In this document: positions 9,383 through 61,757 of the stretch, piece after piece
Layout: the number at the start of each line of letters is the position of its first letter
How positions within the stretch are numbered: position 1 is the first letter of the stretch
Source of the DNA: Candidatus Methanimicrococcus labiotermitis
GTDB lineage: Archaea; Halobacteriota; Methanosarcinia; Methanosarcinales; Methanosarcinaceae
DNA length: 64,000 nucleotides
Assembly (NCBI GenBank): GCA_009784005.1
Contig: WRCE01000003.1
Coordinates: forward strand, 10,519-74,518
Reading direction: 5' to 3'
Notes under the pieces: model-generated
Databases searched by the model: none
The model's input: only the letters and a program-made list of their open reading frames with translations
Told to the model about the DNA's origin: nothing
Translations under genes and position numbers: made by a program

Positions 9383-9546
9383 GTAAATATTAAATTTTAA
9401 GTTCGTAAATGTTAAGCTCGTAAATATTAAGCTCGTAAATGTTAAGCTCGTAAATGTTAAGCTCGTAAATGTTAAGCTCGTAAATATTAAGCTCGTAAAT
9501 ATTTAATTTTAAAATATTAAATTCGTAAATATTAATTTCGTAAATA
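9383..9546. repeat. Intergenic minisatellite, 16-bp unit (GTTAAGCTCGTAAATR)
   Basis: About 10 copies between nrdD and the glutaredoxin gene. Confidence 0.85.
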
Positions 9547-9962: not shown

Positions 9963-10649
9963 ACTTTCACCTTAATATTGGTTCACTGGAAGACAAACGC
10001 AAGCGACTGTCCGATATAAAGAATAATAAACAATATAACCCGCGCTTTTATCCGGTTTTCAAAAAGGCAGAAAGCCTTTCACAGGATTAAATGAAACGTT
10101 TTTAACACCACATAATTAACATCACAATTAACACCATTTAAATTGCAATCCGGCGGTTTCGCGACCGAAAAGTTGGTGAAAATTAAATAACAGTCTCGTT
10201 GTTTAATAAGCTTTTTACTATCGGTTTTGTATTCAAAGTCCTGAAACGATATCGGAGCAACCAAAGACTTGTATTCGGAACAATTGAAGAAAATATATGA
10301 AAATCGTGTGCCGCCGATTGATAACTAAGTTGATAATAAACATGATAACAATTCTGCTGATGCTGATTTTAAATAGTAATCATTTCTATTAAGAGGAACC
10401 GTTCGGCTGATTATGTTTTCTAATCAGAAGAGTTACTAATTTGAAAACGACCATTAATCTGACAATTGACAAAAATTTTTCGATGCCTTAGTAAAACTCG
10501 GCACCTTGGTAAAATCAGGCTTGTGAGTGCCGCGCCCGCGCCCCGAATAAAACGTGATGAGTAGCCGACGGGAACAAAATAGTGCGTCGACAAAAAACGA
10601 CGAATGCGGCAACTGAAAAACAGAAACAAAGGGAAAAAACAAACTGAGG

Positions 10650-11585
10650 AAAATGAAACACCCCTTTCTTCGACAAAATAAGAAATGGGAACGCCCCTTT
10701 TCCCGAAACTCATCTTTCAGGTTTTAAAAAGAGGCGTTCAGGTTTTGAATAAAACGAACAAATCGGTGTTTCATTTTTTTAATTCTCTTTTAGCCCCTAA
10801 AACCGACCGTTCATTACGAATTCCGGTCTGAGCGCAGCGAAGAACGGAATCGGAATGAACGGCTATTATCATTATTTGCTGATGCTGATACTGATATTTA
10901 TGTTGATGTTGATGCTGTTGCCGGTTTATTGTCAATCTGTACTAATGAGAAAAATGTACTGATAATAGTGATGAGAATAAGTTGTGCGCCGCATTTTCGT
11001 CTTTCGTCCGCTTCGCTCCCGAAATCCGAAATTGCGGTCGTACTTGAACTTTTCAAAGAATAACAAAAATGAAACATCCTTTCTTCAACAAAATAACAAA
11101 AATGAAACACCCCTTTCTTCAACAAAATACGAAAAGGGAACGCCCCTTTTCCCGAAACTCATCTTTCAGGTTTTAAAAAGAGGCGTTCAGGTTTTGAATA
11201 AAACGAACAAATCGGTGTTTCATTTTTTCTTCTCTTTTAACCCCTAAAACCGACCGTTCATTACGAATTCCGGTCTGAGCGCAGCGAAGAACGGAATCGG
11301 AATGAACGGCTATTATCATTATTTGCTGATGTTGATGCTGATGTTGATGCTGATGTTGATGCAGATGTTGATGCTGATGCTGTTGCCGGTTTATTGTTAA
11401 TCTGTACCGATGAGAAGAATGTGCAGATAAATATTGATGAGAAAAATGTACTGACAATATTGATGAGAATAAGTTGTGCGCCGCATTTTCGTCTTTCGTC
11501 CGCTTCGCTCCCGAAATCCGAAATTGCGGTCGTACTTGAACTTTTCAAAGAACAACAAAAAAGAAACACCCTTTTATTCATCAAA
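10650..11585 (+). repeat. Family-1 composite structured repeat, two tandem units of about 440 bp (modules M3-M2-microsatellite-M1)
   Basis: Module M3 is a nested inverted repeat (TGAAACACC...GAACGCC...GGCGTTC...GGTGTTTCA). Module M2 is the hairpin CCGTTCATTACGAATTCCG...CGGAATCGGAATGAACGG. Then comes a variable (GCTGAT/GTTGAT)n core. Module M1 is GCCGCATTTTCG...CGAAATTGCGGT. The units are near-identical to the copies at 14.6-15.2 kb and 38.3-39.0 kb. Confidence 0.85.
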
Positions 11586-11624
11586 AAGGAAAAAACAACG
11601 GCAAAAACAGCAAACTTGAAAGAT

Positions 11625-12896
11625 TTATCTGACGTTTGTCAGCTTCCCGTCCTTGGATAAAACAACAACGCGGCTCGGCTCGGATTCGCCGGCGTATTGA
11701 TATCCGGCAAAGGACGCGATGTCATTCGCAAACGCCCGAATCTCTTCTTGTTCCGCCATGTTGGCGCGCGCCAGGCGCAGTCTTGAAAAGCCCACGTGCA
11801 TGTAGGATTTGACTTCAACGAAATCGGGCGCCGCGATTTTTATCAGTTCGGCAAGTCCGGGCGCGTCTGCCATGTTTAAGCCTTTGACAGCGGTCACCCG
11901 AATGACTGTCCTGACGCCTTCTGATTTCTTTTCTTTGAGAACCGCCAGGGACTCATTCACTTTTTCCCAAAGGTTTTTGCTTTTCGGGCGGCAAACGTTA
12001 TCATACATTTCAGGCGTGGACGCGTCTAAACTCATGTAAAGCTGAGTCGGTTTGATTTGACGAAGCATGTCGGGATTCGTTCCGTTGGTGACAAGAAAAA
12101 CCGTCATGCCGGCTTTTTCAAATTCCGTGACCAACTCAGGCAGCCGCGGATAAAAAGTCGGCTCGCCGGAAAGAGATATGGCGACGTTGGACGGGTTGAC
12201 GGCTTCTTCGTAGTGGCCGGGAACCGCGTTTTTTGACCCGCCGAAGCCGGTAATCAATTTTCGCTGGGCTTTGACACTCTCCCTCACAATCGTTTCCGGG
12301 TCGTCCCACGAATCGGGAATACCCGCTTCGACTTCCGTCGGGCGCCAGCAAAAAACGCATGCCTGATTACACATCAGGGTCGGCGTCATCTGAAGGCAGC
12401 GATGGGACGTCACGCCGTAAAAAGAAGATTTGTAACAAACGCCCGTGCCGTTCATTGAATTTTTCAGCCACGAGCATGTTTTAACGGCGGAATGGGCGCC
12501 GGCTTTCGCGTAACCCTGACGGCGCATCAGCTCGTCAATCGAAATGTCTTCGGGAGAATAATGAAAACGGCTTCTTTCTTCGGAAGGGGTGGGAGGAGAG
12601 GAGCCTTTAATCAGGCCCTCGGCTGAATCCCGAGTGGAATCGCAAGAGGAATCGCAAGGGGAATCGCGGGTGGAATCACAGGCGGAATCGCAGGCGGAAT
12701 CACAGGCGGAATCACAGGCGGAATCGCGGGTGGAATCGCAGGTGGAATCGCGAGCGGAATCACGGGTGGAATCACGAGTGGAATCACGGGCGGAATCACG
12801 AGTGGAATCTCGGATTGAACCTTCTCTTTTTTCACAATCAGTGACCGGTTTTTTTTCATTCATTTTTGTGACCCGAAATAAAAATACGATTCGCAA
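11625..12896 (-). CDS. taw1: tRNA 4-demethylwyosine synthase (TYW1/Taw1, radical SAM) with a repeat-encoded N-terminal extension
   Basis: Radical-SAM CX3CX2C (MCNQACVFCWR), an upstream Cys cluster (KTCSWLK...GVCYK), SLSGEPT, and FLVTNGT. The N-terminus carries (DSTRDSA)n repeats. Confidence 0.85.
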   Translation of the reverse strand: MRIVFLFRVTKMNEKKPVTDCEKREGSIRDSTRDSARDSTRDSTRDSARDSTCDSTRDSACDSACDSACDSACDSTRDSPCDSSCDSTRDSAEGLIKGSSPPTPSEERSRFHYSPEDISIDELMRRQGYAKAGAHSAVKTCSWLKNSMNGTGVCYKSSFYGVTSHRCLQMTPTLMCNQACVFCWRPTEVEAGIPDSWDDPETIVRESVKAQRKLITGFGGSKNAVPGHYEEAVNPSNVAISLSGEPTFYPRLPELVTEFEKAGMTVFLVTNGTNPDMLRQIKPTQLYMSLDASTPEMYDNVCRPKSKNLWEKVNESLAVLKEKKSEGVRTVIRVTAVKGLNMADAPGLAELIKIAAPDFVEVKSYMHVGFSRLRLARANMAEQEEIRAFANDIASFAGYQYAGESEPSRVVVLSKDGKLTNVR

Positions 12897-12920
12897 TGTA
12901 ACTTAAACAATTTGATTAAC

Positions 12921-13072
12921 AATGCCTTAAACGATACCTTAAACGATGCCTTAAACAATGCCTTAAACAATGCCTTAACGATGCCTTAAACGATGCCTAA
13001 ACAATGCTTTAAACAATACTTTAAACGATGTCTTAAACGATGCAGCTTAAACGATGCAGCTTAAACGATGTA
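12921..13072. repeat. Intergenic minisatellite, ~12-bp unit (GCCTTAAACGAT)
   Basis: About 12 copies upstream of taw1, reaching the 3' end of the 390-aa ORF. Confidence 0.85.
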
Positions 13073-14233
13073 ATATCTGTTGTTGCTGCTCGGCTTTTCC
13101 CGTTCCGTCACGTCGGCGCCGATCAGGCTGGCGATTTCCAGGCCGTCGCCGCAGGTATTCGCCAATGAGGAGTACAATTCGTCTTTGGAAATGTATTTCT
13201 CGGTACGCGTTCCGTCTGCCAGTTGTATCTTTATGGAAATTTCGGATTTGATGGGGCTTCTGCGGATGCACTCGGAAATAATTGCGGCGTATTGCGTGGC
13301 AATGATTTTCATGCAGTCGAAAATCAAATTGTTGGCAATGGCATCATCGTCGTCGATTAATATTTCCGTCAATTCAAAAGAAGAAATGCTTTTACGGATA
13401 TACTCGACAATGTTTTTCGGGATTTTCTGAAGTTCGGAATCCTCAATCAAAACCGCCAAATCCGTGTCAGCCGTGATGTCGCGGCCGTCATCGTAAACCG
13501 AGAAATTGCCGTTTTTACGAACAATGCGGATGATTTTCTTTTTGTTTTCAAGCTCCAAAGAGAAGTTATACAAATCATCGTACTGAATGGAAAGGATAAG
13601 GAATTCCGATAAACTGAGAACGCGCGGCTTTTGTTCTTTTGAGAACAGGCCGGTTGATGCCATAAACGGCAGTGAAAAGTCCCCGAGAAGTCTTTGAACG
13701 GTCAATTTTTCATCGGCAAAATGCAGCTTGTAATTGAATTTAAGACCGAAGGCGTAACAATAAAGCATGCCGCCAAGGACTTGGTCGTAAGAAATATCAT
13801 AAACGCGTTTGGAGCCGTAGACGCCTGAAATTAAAAAAGGGTTTAAGATTTTGATAATTTCGGCTTCCTTGGATTTGACCCGGATGTCAGAATCCTTTTT
13901 CAAGGAGGCGAGTGCGGCTTCGTATTCATCGTGCGTCCGGCGAATGAATTTATCGCAGACGTCCATGATTTCGCCGATGCACGGCTCTAAGAGAGCGGTC
14001 TCTTCGTTGTCGCGGTCGGTCGGCAGGGAATGAGAAAGGCCTACCTTGAAATTACTCAAAATAAGAAGTTTCCGTTCAAAAACCGAACTTTGGTCTTTTT
14101 CCAGGTCCTTCAATTCCATGATTTGGTTTTCAAGAGGCAGAATTTTTTCAAGGCATTCCACATAATTTTTCAAATCTTGAATAAAGTCCCTCTGGACCGG
14201 AAGTTCCGTCCCGTCCTGATAAGTGTAAAGCAT
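13061..14233 (-). CDS. Hypothetical protein (390 aa), no recognisable domain
   Basis: A long uninterrupted ORF with normal composition. I recognise no motif. Confidence 0.5.
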   Translation of the reverse strand: MLYTYQDGTELPVQRDFIQDLKNYVECLEKILPLENQIMELKDLEKDQSSVFERKLLILSNFKVGLSHSLPTDRDNEETALLEPCIGEIMDVCDKFIRRTHDEYEAALASLKKDSDIRVKSKEAEIIKILNPFLISGVYGSKRVYDISYDQVLGGMLYCYAFGLKFNYKLHFADEKLTVQRLLGDFSLPFMASTGLFSKEQKPRVLSLSEFLILSIQYDDLYNFSLELENKKKIIRIVRKNGNFSVYDDGRDITADTDLAVLIEDSELQKIPKNIVEYIRKSISSFELTEILIDDDDAIANNLIFDCMKIIATQYAAIISECIRRSPIKSEISIKIQLADGTRTEKYISKDELYSSLANTCGDGLEIASLIGADVTEREKPSSNNRYYIV

Positions 14234-14355: not shown

Positions 14356-14589
14356 AACTTAATTATGTTATTTTCTTTTTAAGAGTTTCGTAACTTATAT
14401 AAACGTGACAAATACCCGAAATTGTCACAAATTTTTGTGACGTTAATTCGCACTACCCTGTTTTTAAGTTCAATGTGTGAAAAAAACAAACCGATTTTGA
14501 AAAAACAAATGACGAAATGAAAAACGACAAAAACGAAACATCATTTTGAAAAAAATTGTAATCAAGAAACAAAATGAGAAAATTGTAAG

Positions 14590-15205
14590 AGAGAATGTAC
14601 TGATAATATTGATGAGAATAAGTTGTGAGCCGCATTTTCGTCTTTCGTCCGCTTCGCTCCCGAAATCCGAAATTGCGGTCGTACTTGAACTTTTCGAAGA
14701 ATAACAAAAAATGAAACACCCCTTTCTTCTGAAAATAAGAAAAATGAACGCCCCTTTTCCCGAAACTTATCTTTCAGGTTTTTAAAAAACGGCGTTCGGG
14801 TTTGAATAAAATCAACGAAAATCGGTGTTTCATTTTTTATTCTCTTTTAACCCCTAAAACCGACCGTTCATTACGAATTCCGGTCTGAGCGCAGCGAAGA
14901 ACGGAATCGGAATGAACGGCTATTATCATTATTTGCTGATGCTGATGTTGATACTGATGCAGGTTTGTTATCTGTCTATTTTCAGCCTATTGTCTGTCTA
15001 TTTTCAGTTAATATTGATGATGATATTGATGATGATATTGATGATGATATTGATGATGATATTGATGATGATATTGATGATGATATTGATGATATTATTG
15101 ATGATAATATTGATGAAAATAAGTTGTGCGCCGCATTTTCGTCTTTCGTCCGCTTCGCTACCGAAATCCGAAATTGCGGTCGTACTTGAACTTTTCAATG
15201 AATAA
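14590..15205 (+). repeat. Family-1 composite structured repeat (M1-M3-M2-microsatellite-M1)
   Basis: Same modules as locus 1. Here the variable core is (TGATGATATTGA)n at about 15005-15110. Confidence 0.85.
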
Positions 15206-15312
15206 TAAAAATGAAACTAATCGAAAAAACAGTAAACAAAAATGAAACTAATCAAAAAAACAGTGAGCAAAAGGAAAAAAGAAAAAAGGACAAGAACTTG
15301 CCCTTTCGAATT

Positions 15313-16642: not shown

Positions 16643-17791
16643 ATGAACAATGAATTTTTTCAGGAACAACGTGAACAATCACTCATAAAAGCACAGATTG
16701 TTTCAAAATACTTCTCCGCTTGGGCGAACGTTATTCTCAACACACAAAAAAAGTATTCTAAGCATGATCAAAAGATGGCATATATTGACCTGTTCGCCGG
16801 ACCCGGGCGATATGATAATCAAAGTAAATCTACACCACTTTTAGTCCTTGAAGAAATTCTGAAAAGTCCGGACTTGCCGGACCGCATGATTACGTTATTT
16901 AACGACAAAGACTCAAAAAACATCGATAGTTTGAAAGAGGCAATTCGTCAACTCGACGGCATTGAAAGATTGAAGTATCCGCCGGGCTTCTTCAATGAAG
17001 AAGTAGGTGATGAAATCGCAAAAATGTTTAACGATTTGAACTTTGTTCCTACTCTTTTTTTCGTTGATCCTTGGGGCTATAAAGGCCTCTCTCTTAACCT
17101 TGTTTCTTCAATTATTAAAGATTGGGGATGCGATTGTATTTTTTTCTTTAACTATAACAGAGTGAGTATGGGTATCAACAACGAAGCCATAAAGCCTCAC
17201 ATGGTATCATTATTTGGCAACGAACGTTTAGATTCTGTCCGTCGTAAATGCGACACTGTTGTAAATACCAATGAACGTGAGAAAATAATCATTCAAGAGT
17301 TGTGCAATGCCTTGAAAGAGAACGGCAGTCGTTTTGTTCTGCCATTTAGATTTAAAAACAATGAAGGTACGCGAACAAGCCATCATTTGATATTCCTAAG
17401 TAAAGGTTTTCGCGGGTATGACATTATGAAAGATATAATGCATAGGGAAAGCACAGATAAATCAGGCGAAGTTGCTGCTTCTTTTGAATACAATCCTCTT
17501 GATTTGCGCGGTAGTAAGCAGTATACTCTGCGTGATTGGTTATCACCTCCGCTTAATGATTTAAGGGATATGTTATTACAGGAATATGATGGTCAAACGA
17601 TAGACTTTCTTCAGCTTTACGAAGAACATAGTGTAGATAAACCGTTTATCAAAAAGAATTATAAAGGTGTTCTCAGAACTTTATACGATGATAAGAGAAT
17701 CAAGGCGGTCGACCGAAAAACAGGTAAACCGCCACGCAAAGGAACATCATTTTCCGATAATATGCGAATCACGTTTGAGGGTGTGAAATGA
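16643..17791 (+). CDS. tcmP: Three-Cys-motif partner protein TcmP family
   Basis: The N-terminal pattern ...SLIKAQIVSKYFSAWANVI...YIDLFAGPGRY... matches the TcmP family as I recall it. It overlaps the following Gp37/Gp68 gene by 4 nt (ATGA). Confidence 0.65.
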   Translation: MNNEFFQEQREQSLIKAQIVSKYFSAWANVILNTQKKYSKHDQKMAYIDLFAGPGRYDNQSKSTPLLVLEEILKSPDLPDRMITLFNDKDSKNIDSLKEAIRQLDGIERLKYPPGFFNEEVGDEIAKMFNDLNFVPTLFFVDPWGYKGLSLNLVSSIIKDWGCDCIFFFNYNRVSMGINNEAIKPHMVSLFGNERLDSVRRKCDTVVNTNEREKIIIQELCNALKENGSRFVLPFRFKNNEGTRTSHHLIFLSKGFRGYDIMKDIMHRESTDKSGEVAASFEYNPLDLRGSKQYTLRDWLSPPLNDLRDMLLQEYDGQTIDFLQLYEEHSVDKPFIKKNYKGVLRTLYDDKRIKAVDRKTGKPPRKGTSFSDNMRITFEGVK

Positions 17792-18525
17792 GAGTAACAA
17801 AAATAGAGTGGACGGATAGAACGTGGAATCCCGTAACCGGATGTACAAAAATGTCAACAGGTTGTACTTATTGCTATGCTGAAACGATGGCGCGTCGGCT
17901 ACAAGCAATGGGGATGGACAAATACGCAAACGGATTTACCCCTACAATACATGAAGATGTTCTTGATGAACCTCTAAAGTGGAAACAATCACACACTGTA
18001 TTTGTTTGCTCCATGGCTGACCTGTTTCACGATTCTGTTCCATTCAGCTTTATTGACAAGGTCATGGATACAATTCGACAAACGAAACATCACCGCTACC
18101 AGATTCTGACCAAGCGCGCCAATAGAATGGCTGAGTATTTCAGCAAATCCGAGGTTCCTGAAAATGTATGGCTCGGTGTAACTGTCGAGGCGCCTTCCGA
18201 AAAATCGCGAATTGATTCACTTAGGGGATTACAAGCGGCAATTCGTTTTATATCATGTGAACCATTAGTGGAAGACCTCGGCACAATTGATTTAACAGGT
18301 GTCGACTGGATAATTGTCGGAGGAGAAAGCGGTGTAAAAGCTCGCCCAATGAAACCTGAATGGGTCCGTTCAATACGACATCAGGCAGATGAACAAGGTG
18401 TCGCTTTCTTTTTTAAACAATGGGGAACTTGGGGTTTTGATGGCGTAAAACGCAACAAAAAAGCAAATGGAAAAGCTCTGGACGGTAAAATCATTCAAAT
18501 GATGCCACAGTCGGCCGTGAGATAA
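17788..18525 (+). CDS. Phage Gp37/Gp68 family protein (DUF5131)
   Basis: KIEWTDRTWNPVTGCTKMSTGCTYCYAE is the family signature, with its three-Cys motif. IVGGESG appears later in the protein. Confidence 0.8.
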   Translation: MRVTKIEWTDRTWNPVTGCTKMSTGCTYCYAETMARRLQAMGMDKYANGFTPTIHEDVLDEPLKWKQSHTVFVCSMADLFHDSVPFSFIDKVMDTIRQTKHHRYQILTKRANRMAEYFSKSEVPENVWLGVTVEAPSEKSRIDSLRGLQAAIRFISCEPLVEDLGTIDLTGVDWIIVGGESGVKARPMKPEWVRSIRHQADEQGVAFFFKQWGTWGFDGVKRNKKANGKALDGKIIQMMPQSAVR

Positions 18526-22149: not shown

Positions 22150-22510
22150 ACACGTTATTAATATTCGTTATTCGTTACGCGACATTCATTGCGCGTTAAT
22201 TACGACACGTTATTCATTGCGCATCGTTGTTGCGCATTATTTATATCCGTTATTTATTGCGCGTTATCCACTGCGCGTTATCCACTGCGCGTTATCCACT
22301 GCGCGTTATCCACTGCGCGTTATCCACTGCGCGTTATCCACTGCGCGTTATCCACTGCGCGTTATTTATTGCACGTTATTCATAATTCGTTATTCATAAT
22401 TCGTTATTCATCACGCGTCATTCGTTGCGTATTATTTATTACCCGTTATTCATGACGCGTTATTTATCACGCGTTATTCATTACACATTATTCATTACAC
22501 GTTATCATAC
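22150..22510. repeat. Intergenic minisatellite, 14-bp unit (GCGCGTTATCCACT); 7 perfect copies at about 22259-22356 with degenerate flanks
   Basis: Read directly between the presenilin-like gene and truA. Confidence 0.88.
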
Positions 22511-23567: not shown

Positions 23568-24797
23568 TTAAAGAATCCGAACATCCAAGCAAATATTAGA
23601 TTGATGCGGCGCATAAGAACGAACCACTCTTTTTTCGACAACCTCAATCGAGCGCCCTTTCTTTTCAGCCGCTGCGCGAATCAGTTCAACCGACCCGTCA
23701 AACAAATCGTCATCCGAAGTCATGGCATAACAATGAATCACGCCGCCCGGTTTACAGATGGCAACAGCCGTATCCAAGAAATCAAACGCGTTGTGAGGCA
23801 GATTCATTATGACATGGTCGGCGGCGTTTGGATATTTTTCAGACAGGAAGAGAGCGTCTTCGTTCAGCGCCGTGACGTTGGATACTTTATTCAAAGCGAT
23901 ATTTTCACGTAGCATTGCGACCGCGTCTTCGTTTTTATCGTTCGCGATAACGCAAGACGGCGATGCAAATTTAGCAAACAGGATACTGTAGGGGCCAACG
24001 CCCGCAAACATGTCAATAACGACATCGCCGTCCCGAATCTGCCCCAATATGCGGTGACGCTCGGTGGAAAGGCGGGGCGTGAAATAAGCGCGCGCCAAAT
24101 CAACATGATACCGACAGCCGTACTCCTTGTGGATGGTGGCCGTTTTGTCTTCGCCCTTCACAAAAACAAGCGGCCGTGTTCTGAATTCGCCGGAAATGCT
24201 GCCGGCGGAAAGCAAAACGGTTTTGATGGCGGAATGCGCTGTTAAAATCGCGTCGGCGACATCGGAAACATTAAAAGAGGGAACAGAGGGAACGGAAGGG
24301 ACAGAGGGAACGGAAGGGACAGAGGGAACGGAAGGGACAGAGGGAACGGAAGGAACAGAGGGAACAGGTACTTTCAGGTTTTCGTCGCCGGAAATTTTTT
24401 CGTCAATAACGGCAATGTCGCCGATGATTTCGTAAGCGACCGAATAGCCCAGAATTTCACTGACCGTCGGCACTTTCTTTTGGACTTGAAACGAAACGCA
24501 TTGCAAGTACCAGCTGTGAAATTCCACTTTCTTTTTCGGGTGCGGCAAAAGTGAAATAAGCGGCATGAGACTGTCCCTGAGGACAAGGCGCTCTTCTTTT
24601 TCCGGATACCGAACCAAAGGTAAATAGAGGTAAATGTCGTCGGCAAATGGTTTGCAAGAGTGATCGATCAGATCATACTCATCCAGCAAACGGCGAACGG
24701 GTTCTCCGTTTCCCTTGTGGGTGCGAAAGGACGTGCGTAAAACACAATCGGGATTGCCTGTGTGTTCGTTTTCTGTTGAATCAGACTTTTGTATCAT
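23568..24797 (-). CDS. trm5: tRNA (guanine37-N1)-methyltransferase Trm5 family, with an internal (PSV)n repeat insertion
   Basis: SAM-binding motif VIDMFAGVGPYS plus NDKN....L..N and VIMNLPH. Ten PSV repeats are encoded at about 24275-24365. Confidence 0.8.
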   Translation of the reverse strand: MIQKSDSTENEHTGNPDCVLRTSFRTHKGNGEPVRRLLDEYDLIDHSCKPFADDIYLYLPLVRYPEKEERLVLRDSLMPLISLLPHPKKKVEFHSWYLQCVSFQVQKKVPTVSEILGYSVAYEIIGDIAVIDEKISGDENLKVPVPSVPSVPSVPSVPSVPSVPSVPSVPSVPSFNVSDVADAILTAHSAIKTVLLSAGSISGEFRTRPLVFVKGEDKTATIHKEYGCRYHVDLARAYFTPRLSTERHRILGQIRDGDVVIDMFAGVGPYSILFAKFASPSCVIANDKNEDAVAMLRENIALNKVSNVTALNEDALFLSEKYPNAADHVIMNLPHNAFDFLDTAVAICKPGGVIHCYAMTSDDDLFDGSVELIRAAAEKKGRSIEVVEKRVVRSYAPHQSNICLDVRIL

Positions 24798-27148: not shown

Positions 27149-27190
27149 TTTTTATCCTTCCGTTCATTCTTAATTATGGAATGTAATTTA

Positions 27191-27294
27191 GCAGAGTGTC
27201 AGTCAGCAAAGTGTCAGTCAGCAAAGTGTCAGTCAGCAAAGTGTCAGTCAGCAAAGTGTCAGTCAGCAAAGTGTCAGTCAGCAAAACGGTATCC
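27191..27294. repeat. Intergenic minisatellite, 15-bp unit (CAGCAAAGTGTCAGT), about 6.5 copies
   Basis: Read directly between mtnA and radB. Confidence 0.88.
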
Positions 27295-33224: not shown

Positions 33225-33415
33225 CAAAACGTACCAACCTTTATTTAAAAACGAACACAAAACGTACCAAAAAACGTTCCAAAAATCGTTCCAAAAATCG
33301 TTCCAAAAAACGTTCCAAAAAACGTTCCAAAAACGTTCCAAAAACGTTCCAAAAACGTACCAACAAAACGTATCAACGAAACGTTCCAACCTTTATTTAA
33401 AAACGAACACAAACC
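33225..33415. repeat. Minisatellite (CGTTCCAAAAA)n bracketed by a ~30-bp direct repeat (CCAACCTTTATTTAAAAACGAACACAAA)
   Basis: Read directly downstream of the peroxiredoxin gene. Confidence 0.8.
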
Positions 33416-33439: not shown

Positions 33440-34660
33440 GTAAAATTGCCGGCTTTTCCTTTTTCCGATTTGATTGTGAAAATAGAAGAGCCCTATTTTA
33501 TTTCACCCGAATGGCTGACGGGCGTAGCCTTTTTCGGTTCATCACACCTCAGATTTATGCACTGTATGAATGCTTTGGCATTCAGTGCATAATTTATCCC
33601 ACCACAAAACAAAAACACACACAACCACAAATCCGTATCAGAAAAAATGACACGGTAAAAGCCGGCAATTTTTGCCGGCAATCCCTATTTTGAATCAGAA
33701 CATGAAAAAACGAATCATTTTTTGATTTAACAAAAAATACACAAGCGGAGCCGTTTTTGGCCCATCGCGTTTATGCGCCGCATGATTGCTTTGTCATCCG
33801 GTGCATAGATTACTCCAACATCCATACACACAAAAACACACACAAAACACAAACAAAACACAAACCGTGTCAAGAAAAATGACACGGAAAAAGCCGGCAA
33901 TTTTTGTCGGCTTATCTCCATTTTGAATCAAATCATGAAAAAACGAATCATTTTTTGATTTAACCAAAAATACACAATCGGAACCATTTTTGGTCTATCA
34001 CGATTATGCACTGAATGAATTCTTTGTCATCCGGTGCATAATAACCCCACCACAAAAACGAAACACACACAAAAACACACACAAAACGTAAATCCGTGTC
34101 AGAAAAAAATGACACGGTAAAAGCCGGCAATTTTTGCCGGCAATCCCTATTTTGAATCAAATCATGACATAAACGAATCATTTTTTGATTTAACCAAAAT
34201 GACGAACGGAACCGTTTTTGGTCCATCACGTTTATGCACCGTGCGAATGCTTTGGCATTCGGTGCATAATTTATCCACCACACACAAAACACACACAAAA
34301 ACACACGCATGAAAAAAATCCGTGTCAGTAAAATGGCACGGAAAAAGCCGGCAATTTTTGCCGGCTAATCCCTATTTTGAATCAAATCATGACAAAACGA
34401 ATCATTTTTTGATTTAACCAAGAATGACGGACTGAACCGTTTTTTGATTTAACCGAAAATGACGGACGGAGTCGTTTTTTGATTTAACCAAGAATGACGG
34501 ACGGAGTCGTTTTTTGGCCCATCACGTTTATGCACCGCATGAATGCTGTCATCCGGCGCATAATTTTCTCCACCATACACACAAAACACACACATGAAAA
34601 AATCCGTTTCAGAAAAATGACGCGGTAATAGCCGGCAATTTTTGCCGGCTAATCTCTTTT
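33440..34660. repeat. Family-2 tandem array: five units of about 216-284 bp, each with the same set of hairpins and a CA-rich tract
   Basis: The anchor AGCCGGCAATTTTTGCCGGC recurs near 33660, 33892, 34131, 34347 and 34631. Each unit also has CCGTGTCA-N7-TGACACGG and TATGCACCG(TGC)GAATGC-TTTG-GCATTCGGTGCATA hairpins and a (CACACAAAA)n tract. Confidence 0.85.
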
Positions 34661-38120: not shown

Positions 38121-38274
38121 TTTCAAAAACAGCAACAAAACGTATGTTATTTCCGCCGCCTTTGGTCGACAACAAATTAATTGTTTCGGCTGAAGGCGGT
38201 TTTTTTATTTCCTTTCGTTTATTTTCGTTACATCGTTTTTTCCTTTTGTTTCTGTTTTTTCCTTTTTTTTGATG

Positions 38275-39003
38275 AATAAAAGAGTGTTTCATTTTTGTTA
38301 TTCTTTGAAAAGTTCAAGTACGACCGCAATTTCGGATTTCGGTAGCGAAGCGGACGAAAGACGAAAATGCGGCGCGCGACCTATTTTTATCAATATTATC
38401 AACATCCTTCTTCTCATCAGTACAGATTAACAATAAATCGACAACTGCATCGGACAATAAACCGGCAACAGCATCAGCACCAGCATCAGCAAATAATGAT
38501 AATAGCCGTTCATTCCGATTCCGTTCTTCGCTGCGCTCAGACCGGAATTCGTAATGAACGGTCGGTTTTAGGGGCTAAAAGAGAAGAAAAAATGAAACAC
38601 CAATTCATTCGTTTTATTCAAACCCGAACGCCGCTTTTTTAAAACCTGAAAGATAAGTTTCGGGAAAAGGGGCGTTCCCTTTTCTTATTTTTTGAAGAAA
38701 GGGGTGTTTCATTTTTTTTATTCATCGAAAGTTCAAGTACGACCGCAATTTCGGATATCGGGAGTGAAGCGGACGAAAGACGAAAATGCGGCGCACGACC
38801 TATTTTTATCAATATTATCAGCATCCTTCGTTCCATTAGTACAGATTGGCAATAAACCGGCAACAAGAAGAAAAAATGAAACACCAATTCATTCGTTTTA
38901 TTCAAAATCAGAACGCCGCTTTTTTAAAACCTGAAAGATAAGTTTCGGGAAAAGGGGCGTTCCCTTTTCTTATTTTTCTAAGAAGGGGGTGTTTCATTTT
39001 TCT
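38275..39003 (-). repeat. Family-1 composite structured repeat, inverted orientation (M1-core-M2-M3-M1-M3)
   Basis: Reverse complements of M1 (about 38301-38390 and 38722-38805), M2 (about 38480-38580) and M3 (about 38585-38710 and 38870-39000). Confidence 0.85.
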
Positions 39004-39147
39004 CAGTTATTTTGCCGCGTCCTTTGAGGGCGCCGGATTGATGCGGATGACAGATACTTGAAGCTGATGACAGATGCTGAAAACCTTCGTAAAATAATCT
39101 TAAATATAATAACTGCCTTTAATGGCAAAAGTTCAAGGAACATTTTT

Positions 39148-44854: not shown

Positions 44855-45058
44855 AGACAGATACGAACAGAAAAAGAGACAAACGGAAATAAGAGGCAAA
44901 CGGAAATAAGAGGCAAACGGAAATAAGAGGCAAACGGAAAAAGAGACAAACGGAAATAAGAGACGAACAGAAAAAGAGACAAACGGAAAAAGAGACAAAC
45001 GGAAAAAGAGACGAACGGAAAAAGAGATAACCGAGAAAGAGAGATAACCGAGAAAGAG
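44855..45058. repeat. Intergenic minisatellite, ~18-bp unit (AAGAGRCAAACGGAAATA)
   Basis: About 11 copies upstream of the CobW-like gene. Confidence 0.85.
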
Positions 45059-50080: not shown

Positions 50081-51334
50081 ATGGATTCAGAATGGTTGAC
50101 TCCCAAAGAAGCCGGAGTTAAATGGGGAATAAAAACGAGGCGCGTACAAGCACTTTGCTTAAAGGGGCAAATAAACGGTGCGGTTCGCATAGATCGATTT
50201 TGGTTAATTCCTAAAAACACTCCAAAACCCATTGATAGTCGAACGAAAATCAAAAAGCAATTACATAGTCAAGTGAATGAAATTGATACAGTCAAAGATA
50301 ATAATAAACCACGATTAATTTCATTATTCTCTGGTTGCGGTGGTCTTGACCTTGGTTTTGAAAAGGCGGGATTTGAGAGAGTGTGGGCTAATGACTTTGA
50401 TTCAGATGCACAAGCTGTTTATACCCGTAATCTTGGTAAAATAGATGGGCGGGATATATTAAGCGTAGATGAAGACGATATTCCTGAAGGGGATATATTA
50501 ACAGCTGGATTTCCCTGTCAACCATTTTCTAATGCTGGGAACCGTAAAGGTGTTCATGATTCTAGGGGTATGCTATACAAGGAATGCCTTCGAATTATTG
50601 AAAGTAAAATGCCAAAGGTTATTGTATTTGAAAATGTAAAAGGATTATTGTCAACAAAATATATTGATGGGCGCAACTTGGTTGACGTCATTAATGAAGA
50701 TTTGTCAACAATTGGAGGCGTGGGTTACAATGTTGTTCATAAACTTCTAAACGCTGCTGACTACGGCGTTCCACAAAACAGGCAAAGAGTTTTTTTTGTT
50801 GGGATAAAAAAAGATTTAAAAATTAATTTTGTTTTTCCCGAAAAGCAAATAAAAAATAATTTGACAATTCGGAATGTTCTGGAAATGCCCAAAGATTTAC
50901 CCAATCAAATTGATTGGGGGTTGTCACCCCAAGCACTTGAAATGATTGAATACATACCAGAGGGTGGTTCTTGGAAAGATATTCCTTATGAGCAATTAGC
51001 GCCTCGTTTTCAACGAATAAGAGATGATATGAAGAAATATCGCTCGCCTAATTTTTATAGACGTTTTTCGCGTGATGAAATTAACGGAACAATTACAGCA
51101 TCGGCTCAACCCGAAAACTGTGGTATTATCCACCCGACCGAAAATCGCCGTTATACGATTCGTGAAATTGCTCGAATACAAACTTTTCCAGATGATTTCC
51201 TATTTATTGATGACACACCAAAAAACATTACAGCAATGTATAAAGTCATTGGAAATGCCGTGCCCGTAATCCTAGCTCAGAATATAGCCTCTTCGATTAT
51301 GGAACAAGTTTTCAAAGGAGAACAGGCATGTTAA
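50081..51334 (+). CDS. DNA (cytosine-5)-methyltransferase with an N-terminal helix-turn-helix (excisionase/MerR-like) domain
   Basis: C5-MTase motifs I LFSGCGGLDLGF, IV GFPCQPFS, VI FENVKGL, VIII QNRQRVFFVG and X IGNAVP. The N-terminal ~50 aa (WLTPKEAGVKWGIKTRRVQALCLKGQI) look like an HTH. Confidence 0.9.
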   Translation: MDSEWLTPKEAGVKWGIKTRRVQALCLKGQINGAVRIDRFWLIPKNTPKPIDSRTKIKKQLHSQVNEIDTVKDNNKPRLISLFSGCGGLDLGFEKAGFERVWANDFDSDAQAVYTRNLGKIDGRDILSVDEDDIPEGDILTAGFPCQPFSNAGNRKGVHDSRGMLYKECLRIIESKMPKVIVFENVKGLLSTKYIDGRNLVDVINEDLSTIGGVGYNVVHKLLNAADYGVPQNRQRVFFVGIKKDLKINFVFPEKQIKNNLTIRNVLEMPKDLPNQIDWGLSPQALEMIEYIPEGGSWKDIPYEQLAPRFQRIRDDMKKYRSPNFYRRFSRDEINGTITASAQPENCGIIHPTENRRYTIREIARIQTFPDDFLFIDDTPKNITAMYKVIGNAVPVILAQNIASSIMEQVFKGEQAC

Positions 51335-52896
51335 TGAATACCGATAAAGCATATCTTTTTGGTTTGATAATCGGTGGTGGGATTTGGCGAAACAACGAAG
51401 ACGGATTCATAATCCACCTCCCGTATAGGAAATGGGGTTCATATGACCAGAATCCCAGACGTGCCTCTCAAATATCAGGAGACATTGTACAATTTTTAAA
51501 CCCATTGTTTAGAAACATTTACGGCCTCAATATTTCTTTTGATGGAACTGCTCGCGGTGATTGGAATATTTTGTTTGAGGGAGATTTGACAGAGTTGAAA
51601 TCCGATTTGCAGTCATACGGTATTGAATGCGAAGGCGAATTGCGTAGTACTGCAAGTATTGGTGGGATAATTGCTGATTTATTTGATGAAAATATGAAAC
51701 GGAGATTTATTGCAGGACTTGCCGATACCATAGGTAGCACAAATAAAAACCACCGGCGATTTTCAGCTGAAATCCAAACTTTATCGTTTGAGTTAAAAGG
51801 CTTTAATTTCTCATTCGTTTGTGAGTTGTGCCGCCTTTTGTATAGTGTAAACTGTTTACCCGATCAAATTCTGTGGAACCATCCCAACTTCCAATCAGCA
51901 AGTGACTCTTACTATACGAAATGGAATAAAGGTACCAAACTCCGCATCCAACTTGATCAATATGCTAAATTCGGAGCGTTTGCTTTCAAAACAAAGGCGG
52001 AATCATCTATCGAAAATCGTAGCTTGCAGCAACAAACGCATAGTGCAGTTTCGTGCCCCGAACGCGAAATTCGAGCGAAAACTTCCTGCTTTCATCCCGG
52101 AGAGAATGATAAAAGGTTGCCTGATTGCATCCGTGGAGGACATTATCTCCATAATCGCCATGTCTGTGCTGTTATGGGATGTGAAAATGCACCATATGAT
52201 ACTATTAGAGGCTTATTTTCAAATGTTGGAGATTTAATTATTCCTTTCCCAATATTGTGTAAAAATACAATACAGAAAATAGAAGAAATAATTAAAGAAG
52301 AGCCGTTGCTTGCTAATCGAGAGTATTCTATTGCAAACGTTAGTGTAAAATCATTATACGAACTTTATAAAGCAGACCATAACGCATTATTATTTGGAAA
52401 CAATGCTAATAATGGGTACCCTATTGCCAAAATAATCCAAGGCATATCTTATGTGATTGCTGATGAAAATGAATTAAATGGCGCACGCCCCAAAGGCAAC
52501 TTTGAAAAGATTGTAGAACATCGCATACATCATGAAATGAATAATAAATACCCAAATATTCTTTCTAGGTTTGAAGTTCAAGAGTCAAATTTTATTATTG
52601 CTGAAAATACTGAAGGAGTTTCCTATACAGTAAATGCTGATGAGCTAAATAAACACCCTAAAAATAAATCACTGATAGACTTAGGGCGTGATTTGTCTAC
52701 CGCCACTGGCCTTATGGTCGAATTCCGTAAACCTGATTTGTTAACACCTTTAGTAATCACTGGAAATGGTCGAGGTGTATTGATTGGTGCGCATAACCCG
52801 AGTGTTTATGAAAAACTTGTTACGATTGCCCCGGATAATGAATATAAATTGTGTGTCCGCCCAATAACTGAAGGAGATTTGCGTAATGCGAAATGA
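51328..52896 (+). CDS. Hypothetical 522-aa protein with two degenerate LAGLIDADG-like motifs; candidate nuclease or specificity partner of the upstream methyltransferase
   Basis: KAYLFGLIIGGG (aa ~7-18) and RRFIAGLADTIGS (aa ~124-136) resemble LAGLIDADG motifs at roughly the spacing expected of a double-motif LAGLIDADG enzyme. The gene overlaps both neighbours (7 nt and 11 nt). The functional assignment is tentative. Confidence 0.45.
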   Translation: MLMNTDKAYLFGLIIGGGIWRNNEDGFIIHLPYRKWGSYDQNPRRASQISGDIVQFLNPLFRNIYGLNISFDGTARGDWNILFEGDLTELKSDLQSYGIECEGELRSTASIGGIIADLFDENMKRRFIAGLADTIGSTNKNHRRFSAEIQTLSFELKGFNFSFVCELCRLLYSVNCLPDQILWNHPNFQSASDSYYTKWNKGTKLRIQLDQYAKFGAFAFKTKAESSIENRSLQQQTHSAVSCPEREIRAKTSCFHPGENDKRLPDCIRGGHYLHNRHVCAVMGCENAPYDTIRGLFSNVGDLIIPFPILCKNTIQKIEEIIKEEPLLANREYSIANVSVKSLYELYKADHNALLFGNNANNGYPIAKIIQGISYVIADENELNGARPKGNFEKIVEHRIHHEMNNKYPNILSRFEVQESNFIIAENTEGVSYTVNADELNKHPKNKSLIDLGRDLSTATGLMVEFRKPDLLTPLVITGNGRGVLIGAHNPSVYEKLVTIAPDNEYKLCVRPITEGDLRNAK

Positions 52897-53458
52897 AGTA
52901 TCCTATTACCCAGAGATACAGACTTTTATCGAAGCGCAATTAAGAAGCAATTTTTTGGCGAGTAACCGCCGCGAATTGTATGTATATTGGGGAATCGGCG
53001 AATTGAAAAACAATCTCCAACGTATCATTATCGAGCACCCCGACAAATGTGCTTGCGTTTCAAAATTCGCAGAGCGTGTTCCACCGTTAAGTCTTGATAT
53101 ATTTGCTCTGATTACAGATGGGATAAAATTCGAACTTTTGATTTTAGAGATCAAACTTTTGAATGCCGTAGGGTTGAAAGAATGGTCACAACTTGTGGGA
53201 TATTGTTTTGTATCAGGTTCAAAATATGGGTTGCTTGTCAATATCAACAACGGGGCCAGTCCACGCTTAACTCAATTATTGCATACTGAACATCATATAT
53301 CTCACATACAGACAATAGTTAATAGTGAGCCTTGTGAACATATGCTTGGATTCATGCAATGGAATGACCTTACCCAAAATTTTGAATATAGCAATTTCGG
53401 TTTTATTAAATCGTTATCGGAATTAAGTGATAGACTCGCAGCCGAATTTTCAAAATAA
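52886..53458 (+). CDS. PD-(D/E)XK-like nuclease-fold protein (candidate restriction endonuclease subunit)
   Basis: PPLSLDIFALITDG...FELLILEIKLL gives a D...ExK arrangement followed by ...SQLVGY. It is the last gene of the operon. Confidence 0.5.
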   Translation: MRNEVSYYPEIQTFIEAQLRSNFLASNRRELYVYWGIGELKNNLQRIIIEHPDKCACVSKFAERVPPLSLDIFALITDGIKFELLILEIKLLNAVGLKEWSQLVGYCFVSGSKYGLLVNINNGASPRLTQLLHTEHHISHIQTIVNSEPCEHMLGFMQWNDLTQNFEYSNFGFIKSLSELSDRLAAEFSK

Positions 53459-53749
53459 ATTCAGCAAATAAAAACATTTATTAAACGTGACAAACGAACC
53501 TAATACCACATAAAAAAAGAAAACGTAATGGAAAATCCCTCTTATCTTCAATCAAGAAGTGCATAATTTCATGACTCCATTTGCATTTGGAATTATGGTG
53601 ACAATGAGTTTTGTTTACTAAACGAGAATATAAAAAGATCATTGAAAGTGGCACCCAATTCTCATTATTAATGAAAAAATATTTCTAATATTATAAGAAA
53701 AATGGATACAATTCAATGAATATATTATATCGGTTGGATTCATTATAAT

Positions 53750-54670
53750 TTAACTGATTTTTTTAACTTCTGATTCGAGTTTCTCAAGATTCTTCTTATG
53801 TTTCCGAATATTTTCTCTTATTTCTTTGCATTTCTCAGAATTAAAACTAACATTCTTTTTTTTATTTTTGAAGTATTCAATGCCATTTTCATTGCATAAA
53901 ACAGAATGAGCGAAAATATTTCGAGGTATTATAATTTCATTATGATATTCCCTTGAAAAATCATCCAGATCTAACTGATTTAATATTTCACCAATTGCTA
54001 AAGATTGTTGATATGACGAAAAGAGAAGAGGATCGGCCATCAAATCATCAATCGAACATTCGAGTTTGCACTTTTCAAAATATTTGGACTTGGACCTGAG
54101 ATGAGTGGCAATTTCATCAAATATTTTTTTTGATAATTGTTCTGTATCTAACTCAGCGCATTTTGTACATGAATTGATGATTTCAAAAGCCGCAGCGTCT
54201 AATGAGCTGGTTTCATGCATAATCATACCGCGCATGGCAATTATATGCTGAAATTTTTGAATTGTCAAATCAATAAGTTTAATAATTTCATTATAAACTG
54301 ACTTATGATGAGTTTCAGAAGAGAATTTGGAAGTTTCTAAAAATGTGCTACGATTAATTTGACCAATATCCCTTAATTTTTTTGCAGTATAGAATAAAAT
54401 TTCTGTGGAAATGTTTGATTGGCGAATAAGTTGAATTATTTGATCACCGTTTTTTCCTGTGGATTCATCCTCCACTAGATTATAGTCTATAAGCATGAGA
54501 TCAAAATCCTCATTTAGGGATCGCTCAAAATCGTCAGAATTTGAAATTGAGATAATGGATGGTTCAAATCCATGATTAGATAAATGCACTTTTACTTTTT
54601 CAAGCCAGTCATCATCAATAAAATCATTAATACGATCATCTAACCATAGAATGTTATACCTTAGTTTCAT
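53750..54670 (-). CDS. Receiver (CheY-like REC) domain protein with a C-terminal HEPN-like domain (RNIFAH motif)
   Basis: REC features: acidic pocket ILWLDD, phospho-acceptor candidate D62 in DLMLIDYNL, and T95 in LFYTAKK. The C-terminal half is all-alpha and carries Rx4H as R250-N-I-F-A-H255 (complement 53906..53923). It overlaps the kinase gene by 4 nt. Confidence 0.6.
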   Translation of the reverse strand: MKLRYNILWLDDRINDFIDDDWLEKVKVHLSNHGFEPSIISISNSDDFERSLNEDFDLMLIDYNLVEDESTGKNGDQIIQLIRQSNISTEILFYTAKKLRDIGQINRSTFLETSKFSSETHHKSVYNEIIKLIDLTIQKFQHIIAMRGMIMHETSSLDAAAFEIINSCTKCAELDTEQLSKKIFDEIATHLRSKSKYFEKCKLECSIDDLMADPLLFSSYQQSLAIGEILNQLDLDDFSREYHNEIIIPRNIFAHSVLCNENGIEYFKNKKKNVSFNSEKCKEIRENIRKHKKNLEKLESEVKKIS

Positions 54671-57324: not shown

Positions 57325-58531
57325 TCAATTCACCCATTTCTTTTAACGCTAATCCTGCAAGCTCACCGAACAGGGGTGGAATTGCATTTCCAATTTGTGT
57401 GTATCGAGGAACTTCTACTTTCCTCAAAAGCCCCCCTGTCGTATATTTTGCTTTTATTTTATAAGAATCTGGAAATGATTGAATCCGAGCGTATTCTCTT
57501 ACAGTTAAAATACGTGGTTCCGAGTAATGGATATAGTCATCGGGATGTGTTGTCAGTGTAGGACATTTGGAAGTACCGTCCAAGATTGAAATTCCTCTCT
57601 TTTTTACCCCCCACTCATCTCTTTCTTTACTAGTCAATCTTTTATTCCGAGTAGGATATTTCTCCAAAAGATTAGAAAATAACAATTTAGTTTCAGGGTT
57701 ATGTTTTGCAAAACTGTGACTATCTGCCACATCCCCCTTTTGTACGGTATTCGATCTCATTAATTTTTGATATGAACTTTCAGCGCTATTGTACCTACCT
57801 GCACGGAAATTCTTACGATCAGGGCAAGGTGTTGTACCATTTCTCTCAAACAAATCCGATATTGCTTCCGCTACTGTGACAGTTTCAGAGATGCCTTTCA
57901 TTGAAAGAAAATCACTTTTCATGTCATTAATTAACATAAAAAAATCCTTAGCTTTTTTGGATGAAGATTTTTTTAGTACGCCTACTAAAATAAAACGCTT
58001 GCGTCTTTGAGGAATGCCATAGCTTGAAAAATCCACTACATCTGATTCGACATCGTACCCCATATCTTTTAAAGTCTCCACAACAATTTTAGAATAAGGA
58101 ATACCTCGTTTGTCCTCTTTGACAAAAGAATAAGTAAAACCCATAACATTTTCAAAGAAAATAAGTTTGGGGCGAACTAAATCAATAAATTCAATATATG
58201 AATAAACGAGTTGATTTCTTTCATCTTCTTCAATGCGTTTGCCAGCCATTGAAAACCCTTGACATGGCGGGCCACCAGCAACAAGATCGACCTTCCCTCT
58301 TAATGCCATCAAATCATTTCTGTTTTTTTTCAATAATTCGTTGATGTCATGATTAGATTCTTCAAGCCAATCTGGAAAATTGAAATGCTTCCGCTCATCA
58401 ATTAAGTTTGCTTTAAGAGTGGAGAAAGCAAAGGGACTTTTTTCAACTGCAAACAGACCAGACCATCCGGCGTTGTGCAAACCTAGAGAAAGACCCCCAC
58501 ATCCCGCAAATATATCAATATAATTGGGCAT
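57317..58531 (-). CDS. DNA (cytosine-5)-methyltransferase
   Basis: Motifs I IFAGCGGLSLGL, IV GGPPCQGFS, VI FENVMGF, VIII QRRKRFILVG and X IGNAIPP. Overlaps the downstream dual-GHKL gene by 8 nt. Confidence 0.9.
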   Translation of the reverse strand: MPNYIDIFAGCGGLSLGLHNAGWSGLFAVEKSPFAFSTLKANLIDERKHFNFPDWLEESNHDINELLKKNRNDLMALRGKVDLVAGGPPCQGFSMAGKRIEEDERNQLVYSYIEFIDLVRPKLIFFENVMGFTYSFVKEDKRGIPYSKIVVETLKDMGYDVESDVVDFSSYGIPQRRKRFILVGVLKKSSSKKAKDFFMLINDMKSDFLSMKGISETVTVAEAISDLFERNGTTPCPDRKNFRAGRYNSAESSYQKLMRSNTVQKGDVADSHSFAKHNPETKLLFSNLLEKYPTRNKRLTSKERDEWGVKKRGISILDGTSKCPTLTTHPDDYIHYSEPRILTVREYARIQSFPDSYKIKAKYTTGGLLRKVEVPRYTQIGNAIPPLFGELAGLALKEMGELNG

Positions 58532-61662: not shown

Positions 61663-61757
61663 GATTGTTCAGAATGTTCTGATTGTTCAGAATGTTCTGA
61701 TTGTTCAGAATGTTCTGATTGTTCAGAATGTTCTGATTATTCAGAATATTCAGAAAA
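61663..61757. repeat. Intergenic minisatellite, 18-bp unit (GATTGTTCAGAATGTTCT), about 5 copies
   Basis: Read directly between korD and the acyl-CoA synthetase gene. Confidence 0.88.

Follow-up and report, generated by a model that had tools for sequence, protein, structure and literature searches.

A mosaic palindromic intergenic repeat, probably lineage-specific and BIME/REP/BOX-like in architecture, in a Methanimicrococcus-like archaeon

The classic mosaic palindromic repeats are those of bacteria, where the REP, BIME, REPIN and BOX families affect mRNA stability, termination and genome plasticity. To our knowledge, comparable families are barely documented in archaea. TnpA proteins of the RAYT type are likewise unseen in archaea (PMC6006769). 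The 64,000-nucleotide stretch analyzed here (contig WRCE01000003.1 of Candidatus Methanimicrococcus labiotermitis; "the window" throughout, whose own positions are used for all coordinates) contains three arrays of a composite repeat, Family-1, which is assembled from the hairpin modules M1, M2 and M3. In our view Family-1 is probably a mosaic palindromic repeat of intergenic DNA, non-coding and specific to one lineage, in a Methanimicrococcus-like archaeon; its architecture is like that of the BIME, REP and BOX elements, and the structural description of the element is well supported.

A regular-expression scan recovered six copies of M1, four of M2 and five of M3 at three intergenic loci, exactly the counts given in an earlier note on this DNA, and a repeat-finding search also ties the three loci together. 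That note had also described the modules as near-identical and as folding into long stems, and both statements held: M2 is identical at 56 of 56 positions in all four copies, M1 copies share 96–100% and M3 copies 87–97.5% identity, and all modules fold far better than shuffled sequence on both strands (z -3.8 to -6.1), as do whole units (z -4.9 and -5.8). The loci it named are real and only their limits were drawn slightly too narrowly, the arrays spanning 10637–11594 and 14581–15244 on the plus strand and 38239–39013, inverted, on the minus strand. Locus 1 comprises two full units of the form M3-M2-spacer-M1 and then a decayed half-M3 tail. Its first unit is made up of M3 (10654–10773), M2 (10807–10862), the spacer (10863–10987) and M1 (10988–11038), and its second, delineated by the scan and by folding, of M3 (11103–11222), M2 (11254–11309), the spacer (11310–11479) and M1 (11480–11530). 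Locus 2 begins with an M1 (14629–14679), which is followed by M3 (14712–14832), M2 (14864–14919), a spacer, a further M1 (15130–15180) and a half-M3 tail. Locus 3, read along the minus strand, runs from M3 (38877–38996) through M1 (38742–38792), a second M3 (38593–38711), M2 (38506–38561), the spacer and M1 (38323–38373) to another half-M3 tail.

Module maps of these and further loci (see below) revealed a constant order of M3, a 31-nt linker, M2, the spacer, M1 and a 30-nt linker leading to the next M3, with a unit length of about 390 bp before expansions. The units are repeated head to tail, 1.5–2.5 of them per locus, and the linkers between modules are held at 29–33 nt across loci. The points at which arrays start and end differ by locus, which results in truncated or permuted sets of modules such as M1 alone, M1-M3, M2-M1 or M3-M2-M1-M3. 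The exact-stem M1 pattern, which diverged relatives escape, matched six times in the 64-kb window versus two chance matches, both bacterial, in 596 Gb of reference genomes, a set of species representatives among which the source genome is not found. The repetition of the element is far beyond chance.

M1 is a hairpin of 51 nt and M2 one of 56 nt. The minus strand of M1 reads TTTCG-GGA-GC-GAA-GC-GGA-CGAAA, with GGA-GC-GAA-GC-GGA as its cap, and the plus strand of M2 reads TCT-GA-GC-GCA-GC-GA-AGA, with the cap GA-GC-GCA-GC-GA; on one strand they accordingly share a GC-GNA-GC cap with symmetric G/A-rich shoulders, with pyrimidine mismatches on the complementary strands. The seven apical bases are GCGAAGC in M1 (minus strand) and GCGCAGC in M2 (plus strand). 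Loop variants among the copies retain the form G-N-A (GAA, GGA, GTA, GCA); three copies have AAA instead. A covariance model of M1 matches the reverse complement of every M2 (about 21 bits, E of about 0.005), and M1 and M2 are one imperfect hairpin type in opposite orientation. It follows from this inversion that the module order is identical on either strand, namely M3, capped hairpin, spacer, complementary hairpin and M3. The better-folding strand is the minus strand in 16 of 17 distinct M1 copies and the plus strand in all 11 of the M2 copies. A single favored strand for the whole element, sought from wobble pairs and folding energies, was rejected: M1 prefers the minus strand, M2 the plus strand, and M3 is mixed. 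Within the lineage there is modest covariation for M2, with 94% of cells paired, three pairs changed on both sides and 5 of 500 shuffles matching the score.

M3 is a nested palindrome of 120 nt in its first copy, with the outer stem TGAAACACC/GGTGTTTCA and the inner stem GAACGCC/GGCGTTC. In the window copies the outer stem has 9 bp and the inner stem 7+5 bp, and their folding energy is about -33 kcal/mol, versus -63.5 kcal/mol for the M3 of one metagenome locus (L014). The latter is a near-perfect palindrome of 127 nt (z -7.3), with outer arms of 18–19 bp and an inner stem of 16 bp, which suggests that the window copies are partly decayed. On one side the palindrome is continued by an A run and on the other by a T run of 5–7, so that a transcript arriving from either side would meet a hairpin and then U residues.

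The segment between M2 and M1 had been taken for a hypervariable microsatellite. It does hold tandem repeats that differ between copies, as confirmed with Tandem Repeats Finder (TRF), which reported periods of 6/12 at 11324–11386, 12 at 15011–15116 and 24 at 38430–38475; the first spacer of locus 1 has a small (GCTGAT/GTTGAT)n expansion on a conserved scaffold, the second an expansion of (TGCTGATGTTGA)n at 11324–11386, and that of locus 2 one of (ATATTGATGATG)n at 15011–15116. Beneath these, however, lies a conserved spacer of about 95 nt, seen unexpanded in three metagenome loci (L021, L019 and L013) and with the common scaffold CTATTATCATTATTTGCTGATGC...GTTGCCGGTTTATTGTCAATCTGTACTGATGAGAAGAATGTGCTGATAATATTGATGAGAATAAGTYGTGC, so the segment is not itself a microsatellite. 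Across copies it ranges from 80 to 320 nt, and the expansions differ locally: those of the window have periods of 6, 12, 12 and 24 nt, that of L012 has one of 12 nt and that of L022 one of 28 nt. Nor is it a loop enclosed by a stem, since in whole-unit folds of both strands M2 and M1 fold separately without mutual pairing. Tandem repeats with periods of 9–47 nt fill nearly every intergenic spacer of the window and some gene ends (96 TRF rows in 64 kb), for example at 9391–9546, 12621–12813, 12918–13070, 22166–22505, 27190–27285, 33259–33389, 44859–45044 and 61663–61751, a density that is unusual for a prokaryotic chromosome. As the same expansion is met in almost every spacer of the window, the apparent microsatellite of Family-1 is best understood as a local repeat expansion.

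Searches of metagenomes with the M1 pattern detected 17 further loci, every one of them intergenic and from the JGI datasets Ga0123353/55/56. These carry M1, M2 and M3 at 77–100% identity and match the window inside the repeat only, their flanks being unrelated, which excludes the simple segmental duplication that the earlier note had held up as a refuting alternative. The neighboring genes are ordinary ones (ppk, asd, msrAB, XPF, a P-type ATPase and a cation efflux gene). Some of the loci are orthologous to one another, namely L010 with L014, L009 with L016, and L015, L019 and L021 at msrB, which leaves about 14 independent sites. At the msrB locus the element is 88–89% identical among three lineages, versus 81–83% at the third codon positions of the gene, and it is therefore inherited and does not decay fast. 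A sister lineage (L025, TYW1 86% identical) has a tyrS-hyp390 spacer from which the element is absent while the flanking blocks are kept, and this empty site indicates that copies are gained or lost at the scale of species. In the same lineage the DNA right after TYW1 (L025 11060–11334), where the window holds locus 1, is a long (GCTGTT/GCTGCT)n microsatellite, and three independent assemblies stop at it (L025 and the ends of L026 and L027). A contig from ENA (L023), 99.7% identical to the window, ends inside locus 1 and differs from the window only at 22166–22505 (14-nt period), at 24276–24367 (9/18-nt period) and near its end in locus 1, the locus 2 array, including its 12-nt repeat, being identical in the two. 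These differences in tandem arrays point to rapid copy-number change between near-identical genomes. No convincing match to the M1 model was obtained in the fetched stretches of M. stummii, strain At1, Methanolapillus millepedarum and L003; three pattern scans of viral contigs, that with the M1 pattern included, were empty, as were distant BLAST searches of plasmid and phage collections.

A sister family was recognized in Methanimicrococcus hongohii (CP131059, L028), which retains the gene order tyrS, hyp390, TYW1, nrdD. Both spacers orthologous to those of the window, tyrS-hyp390 and TYW1-nrdD, and a third one contain hairpins with the same cap there, with the stems TTTCC/GGAAA and TTCAC/GTGAA versus TTTCG/CGAAA here. 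About 45 nt after each capped hairpin stands an M3-like palindrome, TGAAACATC...GGAACGCC...GGGCGTTC...GATGTTT, which includes GGAACGCC...GGCGTTC. Between the species both sides of the stem have changed at three positions, and these compensating changes are the best evidence that the hairpin, beyond its sequence, is conserved. A first impression that the M. hongohii element is inverted relative to the same genes was discarded as meaningless, the module order being strand-symmetric. Ahead of the capped hairpins in this genome (L028 7800–8300, 11200–11850 and 17360–17790) there is a GC-rich variable region containing GCGGCTCGCG..., (GCAGC)-like runs and a repeated AAAAGACAGTYGCAGAC motif; the small ORFs (open reading frames) annotated across it are probably spurious.

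The genes flanking the three loci are archaeal housekeeping genes, coding for TYW1, the archaeal TyrRS, PurP, NrdD and a sodium:solute symporter, and their nearest named relatives are M. hongohii and M. stummii (TYW1, 81%) and Methanolapillus millepedarum (PurP, 84%). Judged from these sequences, the host is a Methanimicrococcus-like archaeon of the Methanosarcinaceae from an arthropod gut. Locus 1 is situated between the stop codon of TYW1 (11625, minus strand) and a long spacer upstream of nrdD; locus 2 between the stop codon of tyrS (15313, minus strand) and the promoter region of the gene at 13061–14233; and locus 3 between the stop codon of the symporter gene (38120, plus strand) and the purP promoter. 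The likely downstream promoters lie outside the element, as a TTTATATA box at about 14390–14400 for the gene at 13061–14233 and as TTAAATATA at about 39100 for purP. The M1 side of the array lies 80–200 nt past a stop codon on the opposite strand at all three window loci and at seven of eight other informative independent loci, that is at 10 of 11 in total (one-sided binomial of about 0.006), the exception being L017, which lies between divergent genes. Family-1 fills the stretch from the end of one gene to the promoter of the next, and its placement is non-random.

The strand of the element flips together with that of the local genes, at a divergent gene switch near 30.3 kb. A replication-linked orientation was considered and rejected: the genes at 30.3 kb code for a RecJ-like DHH protein and adenylosuccinate lyase, with no Orc1/Cdc6, and the GC skew is flat, so that an origin there is unsupported. 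Replication direction, instead of gene direction, may yet be the true correlate of element orientation. At 14495–14554, a T-rich non-coding block of 60 nt is 95% identical to L025 in a spacer that has otherwise diverged or been replaced. The block lies upstream of the hypothetical gene at 13061–14233 and may have been conserved as a leader or a regulatory element.

How such an element could arise and spread may be pictured as follows. Slipped-strand events or unequal recombination would make the arrays grow and shrink, and the same process would generate the short tandem repeats of the spacers, those of the M2-M1 segment included. Spread would rely on the hairpins as folded single-stranded or cruciform DNA, bound by a putative host or transposase protein. 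M3, with its T run on both strands, could plausibly halt transcription of the flanking genes from either direction or protect their 3' ends. A bolder form of this proposal, which we regard as speculative, is that the GC-GNA-GC hairpins are folded single-stranded DNA sites for a dedicated protein (a domesticated Y1/HUH enzyme would be one candidate), which would make the system the first archaeal counterpart of REPIN-RAYT, or alternatively that the unit is a self-contained bidirectional terminator and insulator cassette copied between genes.

Several observations weigh against the reading of Family-1 as a mosaic repeat of this kind. No direct target-site duplication or sharp ends were found at the flanks of 17 arrays, and the A and T runs beside M3 are complementary parts of the palindrome instead of direct repeats; no transposase, HUH (Y1) protein or integrase was found among the 38 window ORFs and 20 neighboring genes at the loci. 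The hairpins stand 80–200 nt past stop codons and behind T runs that may already end the transcripts, and the orientation bias of the placement is left unexplained by a symmetric module order. Within-lineage covariation is weak for M1, because the copies are too alike and the outer M1 stems were set by the way in which the metagenome loci were found, and pairing fails in three M2 copies whose outer arms are hybrids. The idea that the M1 and M2 caps could behave as DNA mini-hairpins is a lead from literature chemistry, in which d(GCGNAGC) is described as an unusually stable DNA mini-hairpin (PMC13037366). The suggestion in the earlier note of a non-autonomous mobile element hence survives in part: Family-1 is dispersed, non-coding and modular, and is present or absent between sister lineages, but mobility in the strict sense lacks a target-site duplication, a parent transposase and defined ends.

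The most serious competitor, though in our judgment an unlikely one, is a cis-acting RNA selected by the host, in which the element would belong to the 3' untranslated region of the upstream gene (the reverse complement of the orientation in which the repeat had been described) and would block 3'-5' decay or end transcription, being kept for the benefit of the host and not by spreading. The consistent orientation downstream of stop codons at 10 of 11 loci would suit such a role, as would the T runs beside M3 on both strands, the conservation at msrB exceeding that of third codon positions, and the retention of the hairpin architecture in M. hongohii. Against it, the sister lineage does without the element at the tyrS site, any one transcript would have one of its hairpins in the weaker form with pyrimidine mismatches, the window copies of M3 are decayed in comparison with near-perfect ones elsewhere (L014), and several T runs come before the first hairpin. 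An array of independent structured small-RNA genes is improbable; strong folding z-scores, some compensatory changes and AT-rich, TATA-like stretches ahead of M1 speak for it, but searches of Rfam 15 gave no match at the gathering score and none that was convincing at E up to 10, the best sub-threshold scores being 12–20 bits versus thresholds of 39–98 bits, and there are no tRNAs. The CUGAUGA-like strings in the spacers had raised the candidates of a hammerhead or a C/D box, and both were rejected, as no hammerhead model matched, the C/D-box models scored far below threshold and no D box lies at the right distance. The opposite strand preferences of M1 and M2 are a poor fit to one transcript, module sets are truncated and permuted, and no conserved promoter was identified; the tool used for the promoter and terminator scan was built for bacteria, which makes its result uninformative for an archaeal host. 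The related proposal of structured RNA genes with a variable loop was abandoned on these grounds, the absence of an Rfam match and the strand preferences, together with a repeat tract that no stem encloses.

The same palindromes could belong to a composite of the MITE (miniature inverted-repeat transposable element) type, in which M3, whose best copies have terminal inverted repeats reaching about 20 bp, would be moved in trans by the transposase of an insertion sequence (IS), M1 and M2 being passengers or separate small elements. The near-perfect 127-nt M3 of L014 with its arms of 18–19 bp, the decay of the copies outside L014, and the dispersal and presence polymorphism of the family are what such an origin would leave; we nonetheless rate it as quite improbable, for target-site duplications are lacking, the window of about 64 kb and about 150 kb of loci hold no IS or transposase that would match, and the conserved linkers show the unit to behave as one piece. 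A coding function was pursued by way of six-frame lists for the three loci, in which no ORF is common to the copies. One ORF does recur, its ATG lying in the 3' arm of M2, but neither its length nor its conservation nor its codon positions are those of a coding sequence. It would encode a small hydrophobic peptide, MNGYYHYLLM(LM)n...LPVYC, as in a type I toxin-like locus (cf. the LDR of Escherichia coli), an explanation that we find hardly credible: the ORF does start with ATG in 16 of 18 copies (TTG or GTG in the other two) and the window expansions of 6, 12 and 12 nt keep its frame, but it spans anything from 11 to 97 aa, its C-termini are unrelated, the peptide of unexpanded copies is non-hydrophobic and about 25 aa long, substitutions have no third-position bias, another frame is open over an equal length, and one expansion has a period of 28 nt. 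A CRISPR array was also dismissed, each unit of about 450 bp having three different modules and the would-be spacers being homologous scaffolds.

Other features of the window were noted in passing. At 12621–12813 a 12-nt repeat, GGAATCRCRGGY, in about 13–16 copies lies in frame at the 5' end of a long TYW1 ORF and would be translated as (RDST/RDSA)n; the repeat is left out of one gene call, of 300 aa (P0121), which starts past it, but is part of another, of 412 aa, in L023. A second long-period array (33609–34444) consists of 3.7 copies of a 233-nt unit with the short hairpins CCGTGTCA...TGACACGG and GCCGGCAATTTTTGCCGGC and is unrelated to Family-1. Between a PRC-barrel gene and tyrS, at 16643–18525, there is a pair of genes for TcmP (three-Cys-motif partner) and a DUF5131 protein; L025, M. 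hongohii and M. stummii lack the pair in their syntenic regions, which makes a small inserted island probable. The region 50081–58531 has a low GC content (33–38% versus about 45% elsewhere) and contains two C-5 cytosine methylase genes, a gene for a protein of 885 aa that has two HATPase_c domains, and several ORFs that lack a family match; the region was probably acquired, as an island for restriction-modification or defence.

With Family-1, the architecture of alternating hairpins, conserved linkers and tandem amplification is seen to arise in a methanogen. The methyl-reducing Methanosarcinaceae of arthropod guts are a clade noted for low coding density (PMC11362671), and the element helps to account for the low density reported in these gut Methanosarcinales. 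Repeats of this sort also explain breaks in short-read assemblies, with the contigs L023 and L025–L027 ending in or beside them. The capped hairpin offers a clean bait motif with which a binding protein could be sought, and the sister family in the cultured M. hongohii makes experiments feasible.

Among the described systems, MITEs share with Family-1 their terminal inverted repeats, and this in M3 only (TGAAACACC/GGTGTTTCA, 18–19 bp in L014); as neither a target-site duplication nor, within the window and the fetched loci, a parent IS was found, Family-1 cannot be demonstrated to be a MITE. The Borg elements of Methanoperedens (PMC9879509) resemble the window in having dense short tandem repeats in spacers and gene ends with fast copy-number change, but the window is a housekeeping chromosome fragment of a gut methanogen of the Methanosarcinaceae, its repeats are imperfect (63–100% matches), and Family-1 is a dispersed unit of about 400 bp, which the Borg tandem repeats are not. 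The apices of M1 and M2 match the GCGNAGC of the mini-hairpin DNA mentioned above, although this is a chemical motif and not a family of genetic elements. The BOX element of Streptococcus pneumoniae (boxA-boxB(n)-boxC) is closer, having three conserved modules with a variable middle, an intergenic location, a predicted stable structure and many dispersed copies; its sequence is unrelated, whole units are in tandem here, and the variable part consists here of short local repeats instead of a counted, defined module. In common with REPINs there are two inverted copies of one hairpin type around a spacer, vertical persistence over species-level divergence and restriction to one lineage. M1 and M2 have diverged, however, and form no joint long hairpin, and the spacer of 80–320 nt is far longer than that of a REPIN; as M1 and M2 do not pair together, Family-1 is not a REPIN in the strict sense.

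The comparison with REP and BIME elements is the closest. There is no sequence similarity, the hairpins are of 51–56 nt here versus about 35–40, the unit adds a 120-nt M3 palindrome and an expansion-prone spacer, and the host is an archaeon. The GTAG/CGTC tag of REP elements (PMC3733652) is absent from the feet of the hairpins, which read ...GTGC|GCCGCA and TGCGGT|CGTAC in M1 and ...CCGA|CCGTTC and GAACGG|CTAT in M2, and no cognate RAYT is encoded among the 38 window ORFs and the 20 neighbors at the loci. On the other hand, Family-1 is extragenic at many dispersed sites and is made of alternating imperfect palindromes with conserved linkers, and in these respects it parallels the BIMEs that are built of the REP/PU units of E. 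coli, BIME-2 especially: both are found mostly right after the 3' ends of genes, both consist of imperfect palindromes that alternate in orientation and are joined by conserved linker motifs, with a two-unit motif amplified in tandem, and both are species-specific in sequence, with related species holding related elements in the same spacers.

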